Source of the DNA: Oligoflexia bacterium
GTDB lineage: Bacteria; Bdellovibrionota; UBA1018; CAIPTA01
Assembly (NCBI GenBank): GCA_023954355.1
Contig: JAMLID010000005.1
Coordinates: 38,092 to 102,091 of the forward strand
Length of the DNA: 64,000 nt
Reading direction: 5' to 3'
The notes under the pieces were generated by a model. The model saw only the letters and a program-made list of their open reading frames with translations. It ran no database searches and was not told where the DNA came from. Each line of letters begins with the position of its first letter. The first letter of the stretch is position 1. The translations under genes were made by a program, and so were the position numbers. This document shows positions 26,694 through 44,978 of the stretch, in pieces.

Positions 26694-27632
26694 ATGAAAA
26701 TTGAACAAAAAATACCCGTCAATATTCATTATTTACTCGTAAATGAAGCCTGCCCCGCTGATTTGTTTATTTTTTTCCGAGGGCAATATGCTCCTCTACG
26801 AAAAGCTCAAGAAGCATTAGAGCCAAAAATTATTGAGAAAATTCTTCTTACTAAATCACCTTTTTTCTATGTGAATCCAAGCGACTGGCCACAATGGAAA
26901 AAATGGATTGACGCTAGATATAAAAAAAACACAAGTAGCTCTTCAGATACTGCATCTAAAAAAAACACAGAAGAAGACTCTCTTTTTGGAAATAAACGAG
27001 CAGAGTTTCTAAGTTACGCAAGAAAAACTCTTCACCCTAGAGACTCTTCTTCCTCTCGAACAGAACAGCAAATGGACCATGCACTAAATGCGATTGAAAA
27101 AGTTATTCGAACACCTTTATTGGATTGGTATTTTAATCAATTTCACGAACCACCTGATTTATTTCAACATAATGCTAGGGTTACATTTGGTGTTGCAACC
27201 TTTTGCCTTATAAACAGTATCAAAACTGATTACGCTCTTGAAGAACTCATCCACTCTTGCATCATCCATGAGCTTGAGGGAGATCCAAAAGAAACCTCTA
27301 AAAAAGTCGCTTCACAAACGACCCTTCAGATTATGGAAAAAAAGAAATACTCTGTGCCAAAAAAGGTTTTAGACCTGATCAAAATTCAAGATGAACTCTA
27401 TTCAGGAAAAGGATCACCGAAAAACTTAAAAGGAGAAGATGTACCGTATGCTATTCGTATATTTTCTTTATTTAACCTTTTTGACCATTACAGAGTTAAT
27501 ACATCCGGCACAAGAAGATCGCGCTTTGACAGAGTTAAAAAAAGCATGGAATCTCGCAAGGATGATTTCGACCCTGTGCTATGGACACTTTTCTGGTCTT
27601 ACTGGGAAGAACAAGTGGAAGGAATCTCATGA
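26694..27632 (+). CDS. Degenerate HD-GYP-like domain protein (HD changed to HE, GYP to GSP), likely non-catalytic.
   Basis: HNARVTFGVATF..CIIHELEG....YSGKGSPKNLKGEDVPYAIRIFSLFNLFDHY aligns to the HD-GYP core (H..RVA...HD.GK...WDGSGYP.GLKGE.IP..ARI..VADVFDAL) with the metal-binding residues substituted. The N-terminal half is Ser/Lys-rich and low-complexity. Confidence 0.55.
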   Translation: MKIEQKIPVNIHYLLVNEACPADLFIFFRGQYAPLRKAQEALEPKIIEKILLTKSPFFYVNPSDWPQWKKWIDARYKKNTSSSSDTASKKNTEEDSLFGNKRAEFLSYARKTLHPRDSSSSRTEQQMDHALNAIEKVIRTPLLDWYFNQFHEPPDLFQHNARVTFGVATFCLINSIKTDYALEELIHSCIIHELEGDPKETSKKVASQTTLQIMEKKKYSVPKKVLDLIKIQDELYSGKGSPKNLKGEDVPYAIRIFSLFNLFDHYRVNTSGTRRSRFDRVKKSMESRKDDFDPVLWTLFWSYWEEQVEGIS

Positions 27633-29077
27633 GTCAAGAACTAAAAATAGACTTTTTCCAAACAACTCAACATATATCTCCAGCAATTTTTTCAACACTA
27701 GAAAAATTCTCTCACAAGCTTTTGGATCCATTCTCTAAAGTAATCAGTGAGCAAAAATCTTCATCTTCAGCTGTTTTTGTGAGAAAAGAAATCACAATAG
27801 AAAATCAAATTGTAGCTGTATTAGAATGTGAAGCAACTAATTTAGATTGGCTTCTTAACGTAATTAAACTCGACCTAGAAAAAAATATTGAACTAGCAAA
27901 AATCTCTGTAGAAAGAGAATCTGAATTAATTTTAAAAAAAGATATTTCTTATCTGTCTGAGATCTCAGAATCATCTGATAATAATTTAGAAAACTGCCTA
28001 CGTGAAATCTTAAGATTAGCGCAATCACATGTTTGGGTCGAGTCAGCGTCTATATTCGGTATACGTGATGGTTATACACTAGAAGGACTAATGGGAGTTG
28101 GTGGTGGAAAAAATCAACCTGAGTGGACTATGGATATGTCTACTATAGCAGGAAAAACCGCTGCAGAAAGAAAGCTATATCTATCTGAAAATCCAGCAAA
28201 AGATCCTTTCTTTAAAACTAAAGAAAATTCCGTTTTACCAAGAAACTTATTATGCATACCCCTTATTTTTTCAGATACTCTTGTAGGGGTTATCAATTTT
28301 TCAAACTCTATAGGTAGTCATTTCACTGAAGAAAAGATTACTATTGCAAAAAAGTTCGCTGACCTTACTGCAAGAATTTTAGAAAGAATTTTTTTAAAGC
28401 AAAGAATGCAATCGTTTGAAAAAACATCAGGCAATTTGGGCAAATATCTTTCGAATAAAGTTGCACGCTCAATGTCTGAAAAAGACTCTCTGGCTCTTGG
28501 AGGTGCAGAAAAACGAGTTGTTTGTTTATTTTCTGATATTAGAAACTACACTTCAATTTCAGAGGATATTTCTCCTCAAGACTTAGTCAGTTTACTTAAT
28601 TTTTATTTTGAGCGTATGCACGAGGTCATAGAAAAATACGAAGGTACGCTAGATAAAATTGTCGGTGATCTTGTTATGGCTGTTTGGAATATTCCCTACG
28701 ACCAGCCAGACCCAGAACTCATGGCGATGAAAGCAGCCTTAGAGATGCAAAAAGAAATGATGAAGTCGGTTCGACCAGAATGGGCCAAACGTGGCGTAGA
28801 AAAAGTAGGTATTGGTATTGGAGTAAACGCAGGGCAGGCTATTGTAGGTAACCTTGGATCAAGTCGATTTATGAATTATACCGTTGTTGGTGATACCGTA
28901 AACACAGCACAGCGACTTGAGTCGAAGGCTCGCTCTGGCGAAATATGGATGGCAGAATCTATTTTTTCTTTTGTAAATGGAAAAATTGAAAAACCCTTGC
29001 GTAAGGAAGTCGACATCCGACTCAAAGGCAAAGACCAAAGCATTAATGCCTTTGTTTACCAGCCTTACTCCTATTAA
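27629..29077 (+). CDS. GAF-domain class III nucleotidyl (adenylate/guanylate) cyclase.
   Basis: GAF signature (LCIPLIFSDTLVGVINFSN). CHD motifs VVCLFSDIRNYTSISE, VGDLVMAVWN, GIGVNAGQAIVGNLGS and VVGDTVNTAQRLES. It overlaps the upstream gene with ATGA. Confidence 0.8.
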   Translation: MSQELKIDFFQTTQHISPAIFSTLEKFSHKLLDPFSKVISEQKSSSSAVFVRKEITIENQIVAVLECEATNLDWLLNVIKLDLEKNIELAKISVERESELILKKDISYLSEISESSDNNLENCLREILRLAQSHVWVESASIFGIRDGYTLEGLMGVGGGKNQPEWTMDMSTIAGKTAAERKLYLSENPAKDPFFKTKENSVLPRNLLCIPLIFSDTLVGVINFSNSIGSHFTEEKITIAKKFADLTARILERIFLKQRMQSFEKTSGNLGKYLSNKVARSMSEKDSLALGGAEKRVVCLFSDIRNYTSISEDISPQDLVSLLNFYFERMHEVIEKYEGTLDKIVGDLVMAVWNIPYDQPDPELMAMKAALEMQKEMMKSVRPEWAKRGVEKVGIGIGVNAGQAIVGNLGSSRFMNYTVVGDTVNTAQRLESKARSGEIWMAESIFSFVNGKIEKPLRKEVDIRLKGKDQSINAFVYQPYSY

Positions 29078-30448: not shown

Positions 30449-31441
30449 CTATAGCTTTCCGATTTCTTTCAGCCATTGAATCGATTTCAATAAAGCTGTG
30501 TCTACAATTTTCGGACGATAACCTAGCTCTTTTTTCGCTTTTGCAGAACTGACATAAAGGTACCAACGACAAACTTGCTTTACCAAAAAAGGACTCATAT
30601 GAATATCAATGCCAACAGCATTCAATCCTTTAAGCCCTAAAGCCAGCCCTCCCATCGCCCAAAGCGGAACATACTGCTTGGGTGGCTTTCTTCCTAAAAG
30701 AATATTCATGCGAATAATTAAATCACCAAAGCCGATATTTTCTCCACCCAAGAGGTATCGCTCTCCCACTCTACCTTTTTCCCATGCGAGAAGATGACCA
30801 TTCACTACATCATCAATATCTACAAAATTGATTCCCCCATGAAAAAGGATTCGCGGATTATATTTATAAATTAAGCCAGCATAACCCTTTTCATATCTTC
30901 TTGTATCTCCCGGCCCTAATAAACTTCCAGGATTCACTATCGTTGCAGCTAGTCCTTTATCTACAAATTTTAAAAGCTCTTGTTCAGCTTCGTACTTAGT
31001 ATCGAAATAGGCAAGCCCAAGCGGTTTTGCATTAAAGACAGTGGTTTCATCTAAAAGTTCTTCTGGATCTTCATTCACTCCAATAGCCGCTGTAGAGCTT
31101 GTAAATATAAATCGTTTAACACCAAGATCATGTGCAGCCTGCGCAATATTTCTCGTACCCACCACATTCACTTGATGCATTTGTGAACGCTTTTCTGGAT
31201 TATAAGAAATCATTCCTGCACAATGAAAAATTGTATCAATGCCTTCACAGGCTTTTTGAAGAGAGCCTTGATTTTCTAGCGTACCAATAGCGAAGCTATC
31301 GGCTAAATCTGCCAGCTTATTTTGCTGCTCCGCACTTCTCACGAGTAAACGAACTTTATGCCCCTTGTTACGAATGGCTTTTGCGAGTTTTCCCCCAAGA
31401 AAACCGCTACCTCCTGTGATCAACACCTCTGTCATAGACAT
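30449..31441 (-). CDS. NAD-dependent epimerase/dehydratase (SDR family).
   Basis: VLITGGSGFLGGKL Rossmann motif, and YxxxK (YFDTKYEAE). The start is likely the ATG of MSMTEV. Confidence 0.75.
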   Translation of the reverse strand: MSMTEVLITGGSGFLGGKLAKAIRNKGHKVRLLVRSAEQQNKLADLADSFAIGTLENQGSLQKACEGIDTIFHCAGMISYNPEKRSQMHQVNVVGTRNIAQAAHDLGVKRFIFTSSTAAIGVNEDPEELLDETTVFNAKPLGLAYFDTKYEAEQELLKFVDKGLAATIVNPGSLLGPGDTRRYEKGYAGLIYKYNPRILFHGGINFVDIDDVVNGHLLAWEKGRVGERYLLGGENIGFGDLIIRMNILLGRKPPKQYVPLWAMGGLALGLKGLNAVGIDIHMSPFLVKQVCRWYLYVSSAKAKKELGYRPKIVDTALLKSIQWLKEIGKL

Positions 31442-31469
31442 CCCTTCTTTCACAGGGTACTAAATTTTT

Positions 31470-32315
31470 ATGACGAACAACATCGCTGATCTTGAATTTG
31501 TTGCCTTTGATACGGAAACAACTGGCCTTTCTCCATTTACAGAGTCTTTAGTCGAAATCGCGGCTGTGCGATTTAATCTAATCCAAGGCCCTCTAGAATA
31601 TTTTCAAACTCTAGTGAATCCTGGAAAAGAAATTCCCTGGCAAGCAACAAAAGTTCACGGGATCACCAACGAAATGGTATTCGAGGCTCCTCCTATTGAA
31701 AAAGTTTTACCTCCTTTTTTTCAGTTTTTAGGAAACTCAATTCCCGTAGCTCATAATGCAGGTTTTGATATTGGTTTTATTAGCCTCTATAGCTTGCGAC
31801 ACGAGATCATCCCCACTGAGCAACCGATTTTAGATTCCTGTATGTTTTCCAGAAGAGTGCTTACAGAGCAACCAAGCCATGGCCTTGAGGCATTGGTTAA
31901 TTCTTTACAAATTACAGCTGCCGGGGCCTCTCACCGTGCTCTAGCAGACACCAAACACTGCATGGAGCTTTTTCGCATCCTAGTAGGACGCTCTTGTGGA
32001 ATCAATGCCAGCTGGGAAGATTTACTTAAGGTTCATGGGAAAACCCATTCCTTCAATGAAGGCAGTCGACCTCTAGAAGAAAATGAGGCTAAATCGCATT
32101 TATTGCCATTATTTGAAGCCTTAAAAGAGCGCTCTTCCATATGGATAGAGTATGATGGGGGATTCGGCCCTCGAGAGGTTTCGCCCCTTATGGTATACGC
32201 TAAAGGCTCACAACAATACCTTGAGGCAACTTGTCATTTGGATGGCATTCGTAAGAGTTTTCGATTAGATAAGATCCGAGCAGTAAAAGGTAATTATTCG
32301 TTTATAGATAAGTAA
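31470..32315 (+). CDS. DnaQ/DEDDh 3'-5' exonuclease fused to a C-terminal WYL domain.
   Basis: Exo I FVAFDTETTGL, Exo II AHNAGFDIGF, Exo III HRALADTKHCMELF. The C-terminal stretch IWIEYDGG..PREVSPLMVY..GSQQYLEATCHLDGIRKSFRLDKIRAV fits the WYL consensus (WYL.A.C......R.FRLDRI). Confidence 0.6.
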   Translation: MTNNIADLEFVAFDTETTGLSPFTESLVEIAAVRFNLIQGPLEYFQTLVNPGKEIPWQATKVHGITNEMVFEAPPIEKVLPPFFQFLGNSIPVAHNAGFDIGFISLYSLRHEIIPTEQPILDSCMFSRRVLTEQPSHGLEALVNSLQITAAGASHRALADTKHCMELFRILVGRSCGINASWEDLLKVHGKTHSFNEGSRPLEENEAKSHLLPLFEALKERSSIWIEYDGGFGPREVSPLMVYAKGSQQYLEATCHLDGIRKSFRLDKIRAVKGNYSFIDK

Positions 32316-32373
32316 TGAATAAGGACAAATCTAAGATGAGCCTAATTTGGTGCGAGACAAAGAAGCCGACCGA

Positions 32374-32413
32374 GAAAATTCTCAATGTAGTATTATCTAC
32401 ATTGAGAATTTTC
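32374..32413. repeat. Perfect 17-bp inverted repeat with a 6-nt spacer (GAAAATTCTCAATGTAG tattat CTACATTGAGAATTTTC). It is intergenic, between the exo-WYL gene and tdh.
   Basis: Read directly from the sequence. It lies about 60 nt downstream of the exo-WYL stop and about 60 nt upstream of the tdh ATG at 32476. It could be a terminator or an operator. Confidence 0.7.
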
Positions 32414-32475
32414 GCAGAGAGGCTGAGGCAGTCGCAGCGCAAAAGAGGCCATCGATTATACCTAAAGGATTTTTC

Positions 32476-33606
32476 ATGAAGGCACTCACCCTAAAAGTCG
32501 ATAGAACAACTTGGACACAAACCACAGGTTATGAATTACAAGACATACCAACCCCCACCTTGGATTCTAGTGAACAGGCCCTCATTGAGCCTCTTTTTGC
32601 CGGAATGTGTGGTACAGATAAAGGCATTTGGTTTCGAAAAGCTTTTCGTGAATCCATTCTTTCACACTTAGAAAAAGACAAGCGCAATTTCTACGTCATG
32701 GGACACGAAATGCTCGGACGAGTCGTTGAGATTGGGCAGAATACTCGCAATATAAAAGTAGGAGACATCGTAAGCACAGAATCTCATATTTTCTGTGGTC
32801 ATTGCCCTATGTGTTTGCAGGCAACCAGCACGTCTCTGCGCTAACGAGAGAATCATTGGTGTAAATTGGGATGGTTTGCCGAAAAAGTAAAGCTGCCTAC
32901 AAACGTATTATGGCCTACTTCTTTAGAAAGAATCCGCGCAGAGGTTGCTGCCATCCAAGAGCCCTTTGGTAATGCTGTTCATGTGTGCACACCAAATATG
33001 CTAGGATCAGACCTCAATAATGCTGAGATGAAAGGGAAAAACATTGCTGTTTTTGGTTGTGGAACCATTGGAATGTTTGCCATCATGATTGCAAAAGCCA
33101 TGGGAGCGAAGAAGATTATTGGAATTGAACCAAACCCTACAAACCGCGAGAAAGCACTCGCCTGTGGTGCAGATCATGTGATTTCTCCTTCTGGAGACTC
33201 AGCTAAAGAAATCCAAGATTATTTTTCTTCTTACGGGGCAGATTATTGCTTAGAAATGAGCGGGTTTCCTTCTAGTGTAATTCAAGCCGTTCGTGGTGCC
33301 GCTCGTGGTGGACATATTGTTTTATTTGGCCTCTCTAGTGGCGATCTTACGATTCCACAATTTGAAGAAGTGATTACTGCGGGGAAACGAATTCACTCTG
33401 TTGTTGGACGAAGACTTTTCTCTACTTGGGAAATCACAAAAAAACTTCTAGAAGATCACTCTAATGGCATTCAAGAAATGGTTTGGAAAACTGTTTTAGA
33501 ATCAGGTAAGGGAACCATCATACCTTTTCAAGAATTTACGAAAGAAAAAATCGAGACCGCACTTCTTGAACACCCTAAGTTGCTATTAGAAATTAATAAG
33601 ATTTAA
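32476..33606 (+). pseudogene. tdh: L-threonine 3-dehydrogenase (Zn-ADH family) disrupted by two compensating frameshifts (about 32822 to 32876) that introduce an in-frame TAA.
   Basis: MKALTLKV..GMCGTDKGIW..MGHE..CGHCPMC, then a frame switch (QPARLCANERIIGVNWDG in frame +1), then back to GWFAEKVKLP...GCGTIGMFAIMIAKAMGA. The same frame carries TAA at 32842-32844. kbl is nearby. Confidence 0.7.
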
Positions 33607-33622
33607 AACCTCTAATCATTTA

Positions 33623-34549
33623 CTAAGCTTCAAGCTCGATCTTAAATGCTATATTTTCAATAATATCTAGCTGGTTTTCAGAAAGAGAAAAGTCGCTAAT
33701 CTCTAAATCTTCTTTCATATGAAACTCTGATCGAGTTCCGGTAATAGGAATCATGCCTCGCTGCTGACAAAATCGAAAAATAATCTGCTGAATAGATTTT
33801 CCTGTTTCTTCTATAATAGCTTGTACACTTTTATGTACTTTAGTCGTAGATATTTTCTCTTGAAATATTAAGTGCGGAATATTCCTATTTGACGGCCGCT
33901 CTACTTCTCCACCGATAAATTTCCAATTCGCTGTTAATAAAGAAAATCCTTGGTAGTAAATTTGATTTTTATGACAAAAGTGACGAAGCTCCTGATCCCA
34001 AGCTGTATCTGCATAACAACGATTCTGCACAAAAGTGGGTTTAACTTTAGCGCCTTCATAAAGCTCCATCAATTGTTCAAGAGTTACATTAGAAATACCT
34101 ATAAATCGGACTTTCTCTTGCTTTTTTAAATCCTCCATAACTTCCCAAACTTTCCAATCTGCCTTAGTAAGTTCAGTATGTTTACTAGGACCATGCAAGA
34201 GATAAGAATCTATATATCCTGTATGCAGGTGATGAAGAGAACTTTCAAAACTTTGAAACACTTGCTCTTGTAATGGAGCTTGTTCATCATAGGGTAAGCG
34301 ATGATCCTGTCCTCGAATATAGGTAAATTTTGTTTGGAGAAAGAGATCCTCTCTTTTAATTTTTAAATCGGTATACGTCTTTACTAAGGCTTTGCCTACC
34401 CCTTCTTCGTAGTAATGCTTTCTTTGATTTGCGGTGTCTATAGCCCTAAAACCTGCATTAATCGCATTATACGTACAAGATTCAGTTAAATCTTCTTTCC
34501 AGGCGGTACCATATATCAGACCAGGAAAGGCAGACACTTCTGAAGACAT
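33623..34549 (-). CDS. Aldo/keto reductase family oxidoreductase.
   Basis: GLIYGTAWKED..AGFRAIDTANQ..Y..E is the AKR N-terminal catalytic tetrad region. About 308 aa. Confidence 0.75.
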   Translation of the reverse strand: MSSEVSAFPGLIYGTAWKEDLTESCTYNAINAGFRAIDTANQRKHYYEEGVGKALVKTYTDLKIKREDLFLQTKFTYIRGQDHRLPYDEQAPLQEQVFQSFESSLHHLHTGYIDSYLLHGPSKHTELTKADWKVWEVMEDLKKQEKVRFIGISNVTLEQLMELYEGAKVKPTFVQNRCYADTAWDQELRHFCHKNQIYYQGFSLLTANWKFIGGEVERPSNRNIPHLIFQEKISTTKVHKSVQAIIEETGKSIQQIIFRFCQQRGMIPITGTRSEFHMKEDLEISDFSLSENQLDIIENIAFKIELEA

Positions 34550-34685
34550 AAATAAAATCTCACTTTCATTATAAAAACTAACACCCCATTTAATGAATTC
34601 CAAATATTGCTAGACGCAAAAATAATAAAAGTTCTGAGCTGCACCTCAGCTTGCCCGTCTTTGCAAAAAACGATACAAACTGCTT

Positions 34686-40194: not shown

Positions 40195-41368
40195 TTACTC
40201 CACCTTCTTGGATTTCTACTTTAGGCGTTTCAATTCTAACTGTTATTAATGGGCTTTTAATTTCGTAAGGATCATCAAGCATTTCTTCAATAGGCACTAC
40301 TACTAGTTCAGTCTTGGGAATCGATTGTAGTGCCTTAATAACTGCTTTATTATCCATGACAGGCTCTACTGCAAAATCAAATTTTCCTCGACGGATTCGA
40401 TAGTCTCGAACAGATTTAATATCTTTAACTGCAGAAAATAGCTCGCGAAACTTATTAAGTGCTAAAGGAGAATCTGGATTCTTTACACGTAAAACAAAAA
40501 ATGGGTCTGTACTAGAGGCATTAGCAACAACCTTACCCGCCTCTACAAAAGCAATTTGAAATAAAGAATCCACTTCATCTGGTAAAAGTTTTTTCATATC
40601 CGAAATATACTGGTCTCTTCTTGTTCTAGGCTCAGAAAAGTTAATAGTAGACTTAGTTAAAACCTGCCCATTAGAGACATCTATCATAGTCGCTGAAACA
40701 GCAATTTTCTGCTGTTTGCCTTTTTCTTCTTCCATATCAACTACAATATAGTCCATCGTGATACCCAGTGCGAGTCTAGCACCAGCTTTACTACCAATCG
40801 CCTTTAATACTTCTGTTGAAGCCAAATTTTCTTTCGATAAAATTTGAGAGTTTGAATTATCAATAAAGTCTACAGCGAATCCCCTTCTCTCTAATCTTTG
40901 CTCTGCCATCTTTCGAATGGGCTCAAAAAGCTCATTAAGGGATTTTTCTTTGTCTTGAGAAGTTTGAATATTTGATAAGTCCAAGGGACGCAATAAAATA
41001 ACTGCTTTACTATTTTCTTTCTCACCCATCGCTTCTGGGCTAAGTGCTAGTAAGTGCTTTACAATTTCTAAATCTAGTTCAGCTTGTACGGCAACCGTCG
41101 AAGATTTTTTTGATTCTAAAACTTTATAAGACTGAACAAAAGAAGATGCTTTAGGTAAAATTTCTTCGGCTAAAAATTCTTTAAGATTTTTATCTTTCTT
41201 GTTAGTGAAATTTTTTACCACACCCTGTCGCAGAGCCGCCGAAACAGCTTCACTAGTATCTTTGCCATAACCTATTACTGATGTAGAAGCTTCAACTTTA
41301 GTTAAAGACAAAAAAAGACCTAAGGCTAATAGCCCTAAAAAAAACCGTTTATTGAAATCCAAGAACAT
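40178..41368 (-). CDS. Hypothetical secreted protein, about 396 aa, with repeated LPP20/LpoB-like modules.
   Basis: Signal peptide MFLDFNKRFFLGLLALGLFLSLTKVEA. It overlaps the dnaE stop and the downstream lipoprotein start. Confidence 0.5.
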   Translation of the reverse strand: MFLDFNKRFFLGLLALGLFLSLTKVEASTSVIGYGKDTSEAVSAALRQGVVKNFTNKKDKNLKEFLAEEILPKASSFVQSYKVLESKKSSTVAVQAELDLEIVKHLLALSPEAMGEKENSKAVILLRPLDLSNIQTSQDKEKSLNELFEPIRKMAEQRLERRGFAVDFIDNSNSQILSKENLASTEVLKAIGSKAGARLALGITMDYIVVDMEEEKGKQQKIAVSATMIDVSNGQVLTKSTINFSEPRTRRDQYISDMKKLLPDEVDSLFQIAFVEAGKVVANASSTDPFFVLRVKNPDSPLALNKFRELFSAVKDIKSVRDYRIRRGKFDFAVEPVMDNKAVIKALQSIPKTELVVVPIEEMLDDPYEIKSPLITVRIETPKVEIQEGGVSDEIK

Positions 41369-44300
41369 CACTTCCGAAGATCTCCTTAACCTCTTGGATA
41401 AAACCATAGTCTGCTGAAAATTTTAAATCATCTGGAAACTGAAAGCGAGCGCGAACACCACTATCTGACACATATTCTATAACTCCTTTACACGCCCCTT
41501 TATTACGTACACACAGCGCTTTTAAGTCTTCTAATTGTTTTTTCGATGTTTTTTCTGGATTCAAACGAAAAACCACAGATTTTACACTTTGAATTTTTTC
41601 ACGAGAAGCCAACTCTAGAGGTTCAACTTGAATCGCCAAAATTTTGGCACCTCCATCACTCCCCTCAATATCTCCTTGTACAACTACTACGTTGCCAACA
41701 AATAAATAATCCTTACACTTCTCATAAGCGCGAGGAAAACACACAACCTCAATTTTACCACTTAAATCTTCTAAGGTGACAAAAGCCATACGATCACCTT
41801 TTTTTGTCATAATTTCTTTTGACGCTGAAATCATGCCACCTATTCTGGGCGCATTTGCCTGCTGTGCTTTTCTTGCCTTCCAATCCTTTGCTTGGTCTGG
41901 TTTTTTCTCAAACTTACCTTCAGCAGAAAGTTCGAAAATACGAGAAATCGTATAGCTAGCACACTCACGCAGTAGTGAAGTATATGGATCTAGAGGATGT
42001 CCACTAACATAAAAACCTAAAAGTTCTCTTTCCGATTCTAACCTTTCCATTTGGTTCCACTCTTGTTGAAAAGAAATCGCCGGTTCTGCAGAAAGTAAAT
42101 TTGGTCCATCGCTATCAGCAAATGATGCTGCAAATAGATTGGCTTGACCTAAGCTTTCAGTTTCTGCTTCTTTAATGGCCCAAGCACCAATCATCTCCAT
42201 AGCCTTAAATAAACCGTGTCGAGTAACTTGAGAGTTGTCAGCATATACAGAATCAAAAGCACCAGCTTTAATTAAAGCTTCTATCGTTTTCTTATTAACT
42301 TTTTTGCCAACCATTCTCTTGCAGAATTCTGGGAATGAACGAAATACACCTTTTTCTTTTCTCTCTTGTACAATTTCATCTACAGCAGCAGCACCACAAC
42401 CTTTAATAGCCTCTAGACCAAAGCGTATCGTTTTTGTTCCATTTGCTTCTACTACGTTAAACTCACCAACAGACTGATTGATATCTGGACCTAATACCTG
42501 AATTTGATGGTCCTTAGCATCACCAATATATTTAGCCAAGCGATCAGTATCAGACATTTCTGTAGTTAGTAGTGCTGCGTAGAACTCTGCTGGATAGTGC
42601 GCCTTTAAATACGCTGTTTGAAAAGAAACATAAGCATAAGCGGTCGCATGAGATTTATTAAAGCCGTATCCAGCAAATTTTTCGATTAAGTCAAAAATCT
42701 CTGTTGCTTTGTCTGAAGGAATTCCATTTTTCTCTGCTCTCTCGACAAAGCCCTTTTTCATCTTTGCCATTTCTTCGGGTTTTTTCTTTCCCATCGCTCT
42801 ACGCAACAAATCAGCTTCACCAAGAGAATAACCAGCCAGAACTCGTGCAGCTCGCATCACCTGCTCTTGGTAGATAATTACACCTAAAGACTCTCTTAAT
42901 ACTTCTTCTAGCTGAGGAACTGGATATTCAATCGTAACTCGACCGTGTTTTCTTTCAACGAAGTCATCAACCATTCCACTCTCTAAGGGCCCAGGTCGAT
43001 AAAGTGCGTTGATCCAAGTTAGCTCTTCAAGGTTCGATGGTCCTAGCTTTTTACATAGCTCTGACATCCCAGAACTCTCTACCTGAAACACTCCGTTCGT
43101 ATCCCCTTTTGCAATCAGTGCATAGGCTTCAGCGTCGTATACCCCAATATCTTCAATACGAAATACAGGCTCTTCTTTTTTTCTAAATCCATTTATAAGA
43201 TCAACAGCACGTTGAATATGAGTGAGAGTTTTTAAGCCTAGAAAGTCAAATTTAACTAGTCCAACTTTTTCCCCAGCATCTTTATCATATTGAATGACTA
43301 CGGCTCCGTCTTCATCCATCATAAGCGGAGCATAATTCGTTAGTGGTTTATCTGTGATAATTACACCACCAGCGTGCTTACCAAATGAACGAGTAAGCCC
43401 TTCTAGTTTTAATGCATGATTAAAAAGTTTGTCTACTGTGGGATTTTCATCTCGCATTTCATTGAAGCGAGGTTCTTTTTCTAAAGCCTCTCTCAAAGAG
43501 ATTCCTAGTTGTTCAGGAACAAGTTTGGCAATTTGATCAACTTCTCCATAGGGCATACCTAAAACACGCCCTACGTCTCGAATACATTGCTTTGTTTGTA
43601 ATCTACCGAAGGTAATAATTTGAGAAACTTGATCACGCCCGTATTTATCTTTTACGTAATCAATCACCTCACCTCGTTTATCCATACAGAAGTCGACATC
43701 AAAGTCAGGCATACTTATTCGTTCTGGATTGATAAATCTTTCAAAAAGCAAATTGTAAGGAATTGGATCGATATCGATAATCTGTAAAGCCCAAGCCACT
43801 AACGATCCAGCTCCTGATCCTCGCCCTGGACCCACAGGTATACCTTGTTTTTTAGCCCATTTAATAAAATCAGAAACGATTAAAAAATATCCAGAGAAGC
43901 CAGTTGCTTGAATCATTTTCACTTCATCTTGTAAACGATCTCTGTATTTTAATTCTAAGTGCTTCCAATCTTCAGACTGCTTTGTTGGTAAAAAACTTGG
44001 CTGATTAAAGCGCCATTCAAGCCCACGCTCTGATTCAAGAGCAAGATAATCTTCAGCTGTCTTTACGCTCTCTTCTTTAGGAATTTCAAATTTAGGTAAG
44101 TGATATATAGGCCTGCCTTTTTCATCAACGAACTTAAATTCTACAGAACACTGCTCAGCTATAAGATTGGTATTTTCTAGTGCCTCAGGGCAAAAAGCAA
44201 ATTGCTCTTTCATTGTCTCTGGGTCTTTAAACCAAAACTCTGTACATAGTGATCTTTTGTTTTCGTCAGAAACAGTTCGTCCCAACTGAGTTAGAACAAA

Positions 44301-44978
44301 AATCTCATGCGACATTGCATCTTCTTTTTCTAAATAGTGTACATCGGATGTTGCAACGGGACGAATGTTCATGGCCTTACCTTGAGCCATAAGCCATTCA
44401 TTTAATCGTTCTTGTTCAGCTAGATTATTTTCCTGAAGCTCTAAAAAAAGATTATCTTTAAAACAAGACTGTAACCACTCTAGCTCTTTTTGAGCTAAAT
44501 CTTCTCGCCCTTGCAAAAGATGATATCCCGTTTCTCCTTTAAGGCCACCCGTTAAGCAAATTAAATCACTAGAAGAATCTTGCACCCAAGATTTATCAAT
44601 CAAAGGCCTGTTCGAACTACGCCCCTCTAAATATGAGCGCGAAACTAATGATACTAAATTTTGAAATCCAGCTTTATTTTTCGCTAGCAATACTAACCTT
44701 GAGTAGGGAAAGCGATGGTTTTCATACCCTTCACTAACTTTAAGATAAAAGTCACAACCAAAAATCGGTTTTACACCCGCTTTTTTCGCATTATTAAAAA
44801 AATCTATAGCACCACAGAGATTGCCATGATCAGTCATAGCAAGTGCGCTCATTCCATACTCCAAGCATTTACTAAATACATTGGGCACTGCTTTTTTTGG
44901 ATTATCATTATAATCGATACGAACTGTACTCTCTAAAGCAGAATACGATGTATGAACATGTAGATGAGTAAAAGACAT
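41349..44978 (-). CDS. dnaE: DNA polymerase III alpha subunit.
   Basis: MSFTHLHVHTSYS PHP domain, polymerase core, OB fold. 1209 aa. Confidence 0.95.
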   Translation of the reverse strand: MSFTHLHVHTSYSALESTVRIDYNDNPKKAVPNVFSKCLEYGMSALAMTDHGNLCGAIDFFNNAKKAGVKPIFGCDFYLKVSEGYENHRFPYSRLVLLAKNKAGFQNLVSLVSRSYLEGRSSNRPLIDKSWVQDSSSDLICLTGGLKGETGYHLLQGREDLAQKELEWLQSCFKDNLFLELQENNLAEQERLNEWLMAQGKAMNIRPVATSDVHYLEKEDAMSHEIFVLTQLGRTVSDENKRSLCTEFWFKDPETMKEQFAFCPEALENTNLIAEQCSVEFKFVDEKGRPIYHLPKFEIPKEESVKTAEDYLALESERGLEWRFNQPSFLPTKQSEDWKHLELKYRDRLQDEVKMIQATGFSGYFLIVSDFIKWAKKQGIPVGPGRGSGAGSLVAWALQIIDIDPIPYNLLFERFINPERISMPDFDVDFCMDKRGEVIDYVKDKYGRDQVSQIITFGRLQTKQCIRDVGRVLGMPYGEVDQIAKLVPEQLGISLREALEKEPRFNEMRDENPTVDKLFNHALKLEGLTRSFGKHAGGVIITDKPLTNYAPLMMDEDGAVVIQYDKDAGEKVGLVKFDFLGLKTLTHIQRAVDLINGFRKKEEPVFRIEDIGVYDAEAYALIAKGDTNGVFQVESSGMSELCKKLGPSNLEELTWINALYRPGPLESGMVDDFVERKHGRVTIEYPVPQLEEVLRESLGVIIYQEQVMRAARVLAGYSLGEADLLRRAMGKKKPEEMAKMKKGFVERAEKNGIPSDKATEIFDLIEKFAGYGFNKSHATAYAYVSFQTAYLKAHYPAEFYAALLTTEMSDTDRLAKYIGDAKDHQIQVLGPDINQSVGEFNVVEANGTKTIRFGLEAIKGCGAAAVDEIVQERKEKGVFRSFPEFCKRMVGKKVNKKTIEALIKAGAFDSVYADNSQVTRHGLFKAMEMIGAWAIKEAETESLGQANLFAASFADSDGPNLLSAEPAISFQQEWNQMERLESERELLGFYVSGHPLDPYTSLLRECASYTISRIFELSAEGKFEKKPDQAKDWKARKAQQANAPRIGGMISASKEIMTKKGDRMAFVTLEDLSGKIEVVCFPRAYEKCKDYLFVGNVVVVQGDIEGSDGGAKILAIQVEPLELASREKIQSVKSVVFRLNPEKTSKKQLEDLKALCVRNKGACKGVIEYVSDSGVRARFQFPDDLKFSADYGFIQEVKEIFGSDVLGFQ

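Follow-up and report, generated by a model that had tools for sequence, protein, structure and literature searches.

Nearly everything known about WYL domains concerns sensors on transcription factors governing DNA-damage and phage-defence responses, and the PIF1 helicase is the only enzyme-fused WYL case with biochemistry. What such a domain does on a nuclease is the question raised by a gene at 31470..32315 (forward strand, 281 amino acids, stop codon in range) in a 64,000-nucleotide stretch of an Oligoflexia bacterium (assembly GCA_023954355.1, contig JAMLID010000005.1, positions 38,092 to 102,091), which we refer to as the window. The gene product, termed exo-WYL here, was described in the first-pass annotation as a DEDDh 3'-5' exonuclease joined to a ligand-sensing WYL domain, and was suggested to be a ligand-gated nuclease triggered, for example, by damage or by phage. 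We favour another reading, to which we assign a probability of about 0.55: exo-WYL would be a stand-alone housekeeping 3'-5' exonuclease for single-stranded DNA (ssDNA), in which the WYL domain acts as a built-in ssDNA tether, with a role in repair or recombination.

An intact exonuclease joined to a WYL domain

Both domain assignments of the first-pass annotation held. The DEDDh (DnaQ-like) 3'-5' exonuclease domain (31500..31973, forward strand, residues 11-168) matched the Pfam family RNase_T (PF00929) with E=1.3e-31. The WYL domain (32097..32288, forward strand, residues 210-273) matched PF13280 with 37.4 bits against a gathering cut-off of 21.8 (E=2.5e-9), and a profile of the homologue family matched PafBC (PDB 6sj9) over the WYL region with E=9.8e-18. 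In an alignment of 46 homologues sharing 35-67% identity, all five catalytic residues were unchanged in 46 of 46: D14 (31509-31511) and E16 (31515-31517) of the Exo I motif, D100 (31767-31769) of Exo II, and H155 (31932-31934) and D160 (31947-31949) of Exo III in its HxxxxD form. The assignment to the DEDDh superfamily is thus based on the Exo I-III motifs, a profile score that exceeds the curated threshold and an exonuclease fold of the RNase H-like type. The N-termini of the homologues in the same alignment line up with the ATG at 31470.

The N-terminus of the protein is the exonuclease domain itself, unlike the regulators PafBC, DriD, BrxR and CapW, which are built as helix-turn-helix (HTH), WYL and WCX. 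Pfam detected neither an HTH nor a WCX extension in exo-WYL, and the protein stops eight residues past the WYL domain. The two domains are connected by a structured, mostly helical linker (31974..32096, forward strand, residues 169-209) that includes a conserved 'HG...SF' segment. As a whole, the linker is the least conserved part of the protein: its identity is 45% among clade members and 18% against distant ones. Compared with a relative of 93% identity (locus L051), the ratio of non-synonymous to synonymous substitution rates (dN/dS), in a comparison where synonymous sites are near saturation, was 0.025 for the whole gene, with values of 0.018 in the exonuclease part and 0.024 in the WYL part; purifying selection thus acts on both halves with equal strength. 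The base composition of the gene is unremarkable (42.5% GC in an AT-rich window of 38.9% GC). We conclude that the gene is real, well conserved and chromosomal, and that it encodes a fusion of a DnaQ-type exonuclease with a WYL domain.

The AlphaFold2 model of exo-WYL, built from the 46-homologue alignment, reached a mean predicted local distance difference test score (pLDDT) of 94.3 and a predicted template modelling score (pTM) of 0.90, and the two domains are therefore predicted to pack in one fixed arrangement. In the model, the linker consists of the end of a helix spanning residues 157-174 and of two further helices at 182-189 and 195-198, with pLDDT values of at least 93, and the WYL domain follows as a helix (209-220) and five strands (224-228, 234-245, 248-255, 260-265 and 269-273) forming an Sm-like barrel. 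When the C-terminal 91 residues were modelled separately, the same helix and five strands were obtained, and the top 28 PDB matches of this model were all WYL proteins (PafBC, CapW, DriD and BrxR; TM-score 0.58-0.70), with Hfq coming next. The WYL call is thus borne out by the predicted fold as well. PDB searches by sequence and by structure found no entry in which the exonuclease and WYL domains occur together.

PF00929 and PF13280 were found together in 117 of the 120 best homologue clusters (clustered at 90% identity), in proteins 270-295 residues long. The source records, where they give a name, call them 'DNA polymerase III subunit epsilon' or 'exonuclease domain-containing protein [Bdellovibrionota]'. 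Two-domain tblastn matches in species-representative genomes came from metagenome-assembled genomes labelled Bdellovibrionales/Bdellovibrio, Planctomycetaceae/Planctomycetia, Obscuribacterales, Eisenbacteria, Krumholzibacteriota, Ignavibacteriales, Zixiibacteriota and Cloacimonadota, and purpose-built hidden Markov models confirmed both the exonuclease and the WYL domain in 16 of those loci. The architecture occurs in at least eight phyla, and its spread is patchy. The WYL half alone is too short as a query for counting the family: it gave 41 matches at E<=1e-3 in the search of representatives, about 20 of them proteins of 255-316 residues with a C-terminal WYL domain, and a profile of the linker plus WYL domain retrieved only short WYL fragments of at most 165 residues. 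The literature searched, also with DnaQ and epsilon wording and for Bdellovibrio dnaQ, contained no description of a DEDDh-WYL fusion. The family is widespread and experimentally uncharacterised. The first-pass annotation had named as its own refutation that this might be a common epsilon-subunit variant with a known function; the architecture did prove common, but no function is described for it, and exo-WYL falls short of every curated cut-off for dnaQ equivalogs, as detailed below.

Probable single-stranded DNA contacts of the WYL domain

The transcription factor DriD contacts ssDNA through Y168, S172, R178, R189, Y192, R204, W206 and R207 of its WYL domain (PMC10853764). In a HMMER alignment of the exo-WYL C-terminus to the DriD C-domain (PDB 7tzv), six of these eight contacts were kept. 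Y168, W206 and R207 correspond to Y228, F264 and R265, each present in all 46 homologues; R204 corresponds to K/R262, basic in all 46; R178 corresponds to R235 (45 of 46) and Y192 to Y250 (37 of 46). The remaining two, S172 (F232 here) and R189 (S247), are not conserved. Exo-WYL therefore has the conserved basic and aromatic ligand-binding residues expected of a WYL domain, including the tyrosine of the WYL motif and the FRxxR motif. Moreover, the liganded WYL structures among the retrieved matches all hold ssDNA (DriD 7tzv and 8tp8, CapW 9c5g).

A closer parallel in architecture is offered by the Pif1 helicases of Thermotoga elfii (TePif1), Deferribacter and Sulfurihydrogenibium, in which a C-terminal WYL domain without HTH or WCX is likewise fused to an enzyme acting on ssDNA. 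The WYL domain of TePif1 serves as an accessory site that binds ssDNA with high affinity and lies towards the 5' side of the strand (bioRxiv 10.1101/163188; PMC9964779), and the WYL-4x mutant R470A/C494A/R501A/R504A loses high-affinity ssDNA binding (bioRxiv 10.1101/163188). The same basic and cysteine residues are conserved in exo-WYL: R470, C494, R501 and R504, placed by motif position rather than by alignment to TePif1, are R235, C255, R265 and K/R268, each conserved in at least 45 of the 46 homologues. The catalytic partner in Pif1 is, however, a helicase of superfamily 1B, and there is no sequence relationship beyond the WYL domain. DriD, PafBC, CapW and BrxR share with exo-WYL the WYL fold and most of the ssDNA-contact residues, but they are HTH-WYL-WCX factors with a transcriptional output, whereas the output of exo-WYL is a nuclease. 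Judged from its residues, the WYL domain of exo-WYL most likely grips ssDNA.

WYL domains also contribute to dimer interfaces in regulators, and dimers are the working form of many DEDDh enzymes, RNase T and TREX among them. Together with the multi-chain entries among the PDB matches, these points would be in line with a WYL domain that serves solely for dimerisation or protein docking and binds no nucleic acid. We consider this highly improbable, for the invariant residues are basic and aromatic contacts to nucleic acid rather than a hydrophobic interface, and the isolated WYL domain of PIF1 binds ssDNA (bioRxiv 10.1101/163188).

Since DEDDh exonucleases attack 3' ends that are single-stranded, the simplest reading of the WYL 'ligand' is the substrate strand itself, and the ligand sensing proposed initially can be read as substrate binding by the same residues that bind ssDNA in DriD and PIF1. 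In the tethered exonuclease that we favour, the DEDDh domain would degrade ssDNA from a free 3' end, its active site taking the 3' terminus and the WYL barrel holding the same strand further 5'. The helical linker would keep the small Sm-like barrel in a fixed position, and tethering would raise the substrate affinity, and probably the processivity, of an otherwise distributive DnaQ-type nuclease. The likely task of such an enzyme in the cell would be to trim 3' tails, flaps or gaps of ssDNA when DNA is repaired or recombined. In Escherichia coli exonuclease I (SbcB), a DnaQ-fold exonuclease domain is accompanied by additional domains, one of them a small beta-barrel, which keep hold of ssDNA and render the enzyme processive; this offers a functional analogy for the proposed role of the WYL domain. 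The analogy does not extend to structure: exonuclease I (PDB 1fxx) was among the structural matches, but the exonuclease domains alone superpose, and we rejected an ExoI-like superposition over two domains because the alignment is confined to the exonuclease domain. A tethered repair exonuclease would be a modest addition to the ExoI/ExoX class.

The same residues could serve a switch. A sensor-effector nuclease would be kept off until its WYL domain binds a signal, for instance free ssDNA from damage or from replicating phage, or else a second messenger of the nucleotide type, and would then be switched on allosterically. WYL domains in regulators do sense ssDNA allosterically, as in DriD (PMC10853764) and in PafBC, which ssDNA activates (PMC11804915), and the WYL domain of one Lactiplantibacillus factor is reported to sense cyclic di-GMP (PMC11880434). 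The confident rigid packing of the two domains in the model (pTM 0.90) would permit allostery. A gene for a GAF-domain adenylate/guanylate cyclase lies 2.4 kb upstream (27581-29077, forward strand) and occupies the equivalent position in a related contig, P0006. Against a switch, the conserved WYL residues are non-sequence-specific ssDNA contacts, for which 'ligand' and 'substrate' are indistinguishable, and exo-WYL has no WCX. Sequence alone cannot separate gating from tethering, and exo-WYL offers a one-polypeptide system for asking whether a WYL domain tethers ssDNA or gates catalysis. With the genomic context given below, we regard the sensor-effector nuclease as possible but doubtful.

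Relatives and likely substrate of the exonuclease half

The exonuclease half (residues 1-190) had its best sequence and structure matches in the exonuclease domain of PolC, the N-terminal exonuclease of DinG, epsilon, Cas2-DEDDh and ExoX, the PolC proofreading domain being the closest. All of these share the fold and the DEDDh active site with exo-WYL, but none of them has a WYL domain. An ssDNA substrate and a role in repair or recombination are favoured because the closest relatives of the exonuclease are all DNA enzymes and because mutY is a conserved neighbour in the clade.

The DEDDh fold is also common to RNase T, ERI1 and REXO2, and the Pfam family that detects the domain is itself named RNase_T. 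Exo-WYL might accordingly be an RNA 3'-5' exonuclease that, like RNase T, Orn or ERI1, trims or degrades RNA 3' ends, with the Sm-like WYL domain binding single-stranded RNA (ssRNA). The Sm/Hfq fold was the next-best structural match after the WYL proteins, Sm-like domains often bind RNA, and WYL1 is reported to bind ssRNA (PMC6547453). However, the best matches are all DNA exonucleases, and the E-values of RNase T were 10 to 30 orders of magnitude worse than theirs. The Rv2179c-like RNase family stayed below its cut-off, and the neighbouring genes are not RNA-processing genes. An RNA substrate is therefore unlikely.

The name under which many of these proteins are deposited suggests yet another role, namely that exo-WYL is the replicative proofreader of its lineage, an epsilon subunit with a WYL domain in place of the polymerase-binding C-terminal tail. 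The generic TIGR00573 dnaq model passes its cut-off, the PolC proofreading domain is the nearest relative, and dnaE lies about 9 kb from exo-WYL in all clade members. In the PHP domain of DnaE (41349-44978, reverse strand), about three of the nine canonical metal-binding positions look substituted by eye against the patterns that we take to be canonical: GCDFY, RLVLLA and LTGGLKG presumably stand where E, H and C positions are expected. If the PHP domain is partly degenerate, as this inspection suggests, the genome probably has to encode a proofreader of the DnaQ type somewhere.

Against exo-WYL filling that place, all of the equivalog models scored far below their cut-offs (TIGR01406, 81.4 versus 222.7 bits; PRK05711, 80.8 versus 196; PRK06309, 87.7 versus 245; PRK06310, 85.5 versus 236). 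By eye, neither a clamp-binding motif of the QxxLxF type nor a flexible tail is apparent; in the model, residues 175-273 are folded with pLDDT above 90 and make up the linker and the WYL domain. The patchy spread across phyla is also unlike that of a core replisome subunit. We consider the proofreader quite improbable, more so than an RNA exonuclease. In Bdellovibrionota, Obscuribacterales, Zixibacteria, Krumholzibacteriota and further phyla, most of them uncultured, the reading of exo-WYL as a tethered exonuclease would correct the common mis-annotation as 'DNA polymerase III epsilon'. If exo-WYL were instead the proofreader of its lineage, or a damage-licensed nuclease, this would amount to a new wiring of genome maintenance.

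Genomic neighbourhood and defence context

In the window, exo-WYL is preceded by a divergent SDR/epimerase gene (reverse strand) and followed by tdh (of the zinc-dependent alcohol dehydrogenase type), an aldo-keto reductase gene (reverse), kbl and mutY, and then by a gene for a protein of no assigned function, a lipoate-protein ligase gene (reverse), an AI-2E-type transporter gene, two more genes without assigned function and dnaE (reverse). The block of the SDR gene, exo-WYL, tdh, kbl and mutY, followed further on by dnaE, recurs without the reductase in the P0006 contig, whose homologue has 66% identity, and in loci L038 (58%) and L039 (43%), so that mutY, three genes downstream in the block, keeps its synteny down to 43% identity. 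In L038 and the P0006 contig, the end of exo-WYL and the start of tdh share 4 nt (ATGA), and the gap between the two genes is 62 nt in L039, 42 nt in L051 and 160 nt in the window. In this Bdellovibrionota clade, exo-WYL is therefore a vertically inherited core gene, probably co-transcribed with tdh, kbl and mutY. The earlier statement that the gene stands alone is thus true of this genome but not of its relatives.

Outside the clade, the neighbours are other, unrelated housekeeping genes. Obscuribacterales-like loci have genes for a secreted TPR protein, a phosphoribosyltransferase and a GATase next to exo-WYL, Ignavibacteriales and Zixibacteria have a histidine ammonia-lyase gene, and Bdellovibrio species have genes for an outer-membrane protein, a signal-peptidase-like protein and a GGDEF response regulator. 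No partner gene common to different clades was found, each recurrent neighbour being confined to one clade, and exo-WYL therefore works on its own.

This context bears on the proposed phage trigger and, with it, on the sensor-effector nuclease. The housekeeping block with tdh, kbl, mutY and dnaE is present in every clade relative, most other clades also place exo-WYL among housekeeping neighbours, and the gene order is vertically inherited. Searched against PADLOC-DB 2.0, exo-WYL gave only generic domain matches (DEDDh, WYL and PDC-S48). For the candidate PDC-S48 and the CRISPR-associated 'DEDDh' and 'WYL' models, the similarity is at domain level, with E=2e-28 over the exonuclease domain and E=3e-10 for WYL, and the PDC-S48 match covers profile positions 5-186 of 411 and hence one domain only. 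No system-specific PADLOC model with its partner genes was found at the locus, where the neighbours are the SDR, tdh, aldo-keto reductase, kbl, mutY, lipoate ligase and dnaE genes; there are no cas or defence genes near exo-WYL, and the window contains no CRISPR array. In the phage collection, matches were to the exonuclease domain only, no record covered at least 80% of the query, and the two-domain protein was absent. A ligand- or phage-triggered switch at this locus is not supported, and the gene has the look of one for housekeeping or repair, not of a switch for phage defence.

Among plasmid records, 95 covered at least 80% of the query, Enterococcus megaplasmids among them. The one match inspected of these 95 was rejected as a plasmid-borne exo-WYL, as it is a different protein of 600 residues without a WYL domain. 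This protein, from the Enterococcus faecium plasmid NZ_CP011282.1 (L048:5851-7653), has an N-terminal DEDDh exonuclease domain, a weak TPR match and a C-terminal NUMOD-like motif, and its gene is flanked by insertion sequence elements.

A sister sub-clade of 38-39% identity departs from the housekeeping arrangement. In two contigs (P0114, locus L041:142-6460; P0107, locus L049:62-6398), exo-WYL lies in a four-gene operon with 4-nt overlaps at exo-WYL, in the order McrC-like protein (DUF2357 plus PDDEXK_7), exo-WYL, Cas4-like/RNase_H_2/DUF2779 protein and superfamily 1 helicase (AAA_11/AAA_12), and an integrase fragment lies near the operon of L049. The operon matched no PADLOC system and is a candidate for a new nuclease-helicase module of defence or repair. 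It also lends the sensor-effector nuclease some support, in the form of a self-contained ssDNA sensor-effector, in which ssDNA or a nucleotide bound to the WYL domain would allosterically license the exonuclease and which would also have been recruited into an undescribed nuclease-helicase defence operon at L041 and L049. We regard this only as a tentative possibility. If it is true, exo-WYL would give a WYL sensor its first known enzymatic output, helicases aside.

The flanks of exo-WYL in the window proved as first described, with the divergent SDR gene upstream and a perfect hairpin downstream. The start codons of the SDR gene and of exo-WYL are only about 17-34 nt apart (31436-31469), and a promoter search over 31200-32700 gave none of the sigma-70-like type. 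The promoters would therefore lie inside neighbouring coding sequences or be of another type.

The spacer between exo-WYL and tdh (32316-32475, 160 nt) folds into a long imperfect hairpin (z=-6.4 against shuffled sequences) and contains a perfect 17-bp palindrome with a 6-nt loop at 32374..32413, which was identified by an inverted-repeat search and is assigned to no strand. There was no second copy of the palindrome in the window and no exact copy in the metagenome contigs, and the hairpin received neither a terminator call with a T-run nor an Rfam family. The extra segment bearing the hairpin is missing from L051, L038 and the P0006 contig. We rejected the hairpin as a conserved regulatory element, given that a relative of 93% identity does without it; the segment is a lineage-specific insertion outside the conserved gene unit. 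It may derive from a small inserted palindromic element, and the hairpin may now act as a weak bidirectional terminator.

The region downstream of the spacer shows two further peculiarities. The aldo-keto reductase gene (33623-34603, reverse strand) stands between tdh and kbl in this genome only; tdh is followed directly by kbl in L038 and L039, and a different, unannotated open reading frame of 478 amino acids separates the two genes in the P0006 contig. Furthermore, the tdh-like gene (32476-33606, forward strand) is interrupted by an in-frame stop at 32842-32844. From about 32815 to 32870, it is the +1 frame that encodes the Tdh-like sequence RQPARLCANERIIGVNWDG. This implies a pair of frameshifts, about 55 nt from each other, that cancel out, and the interrupted tdh is either a recent pseudogene or the product of a local assembly error.

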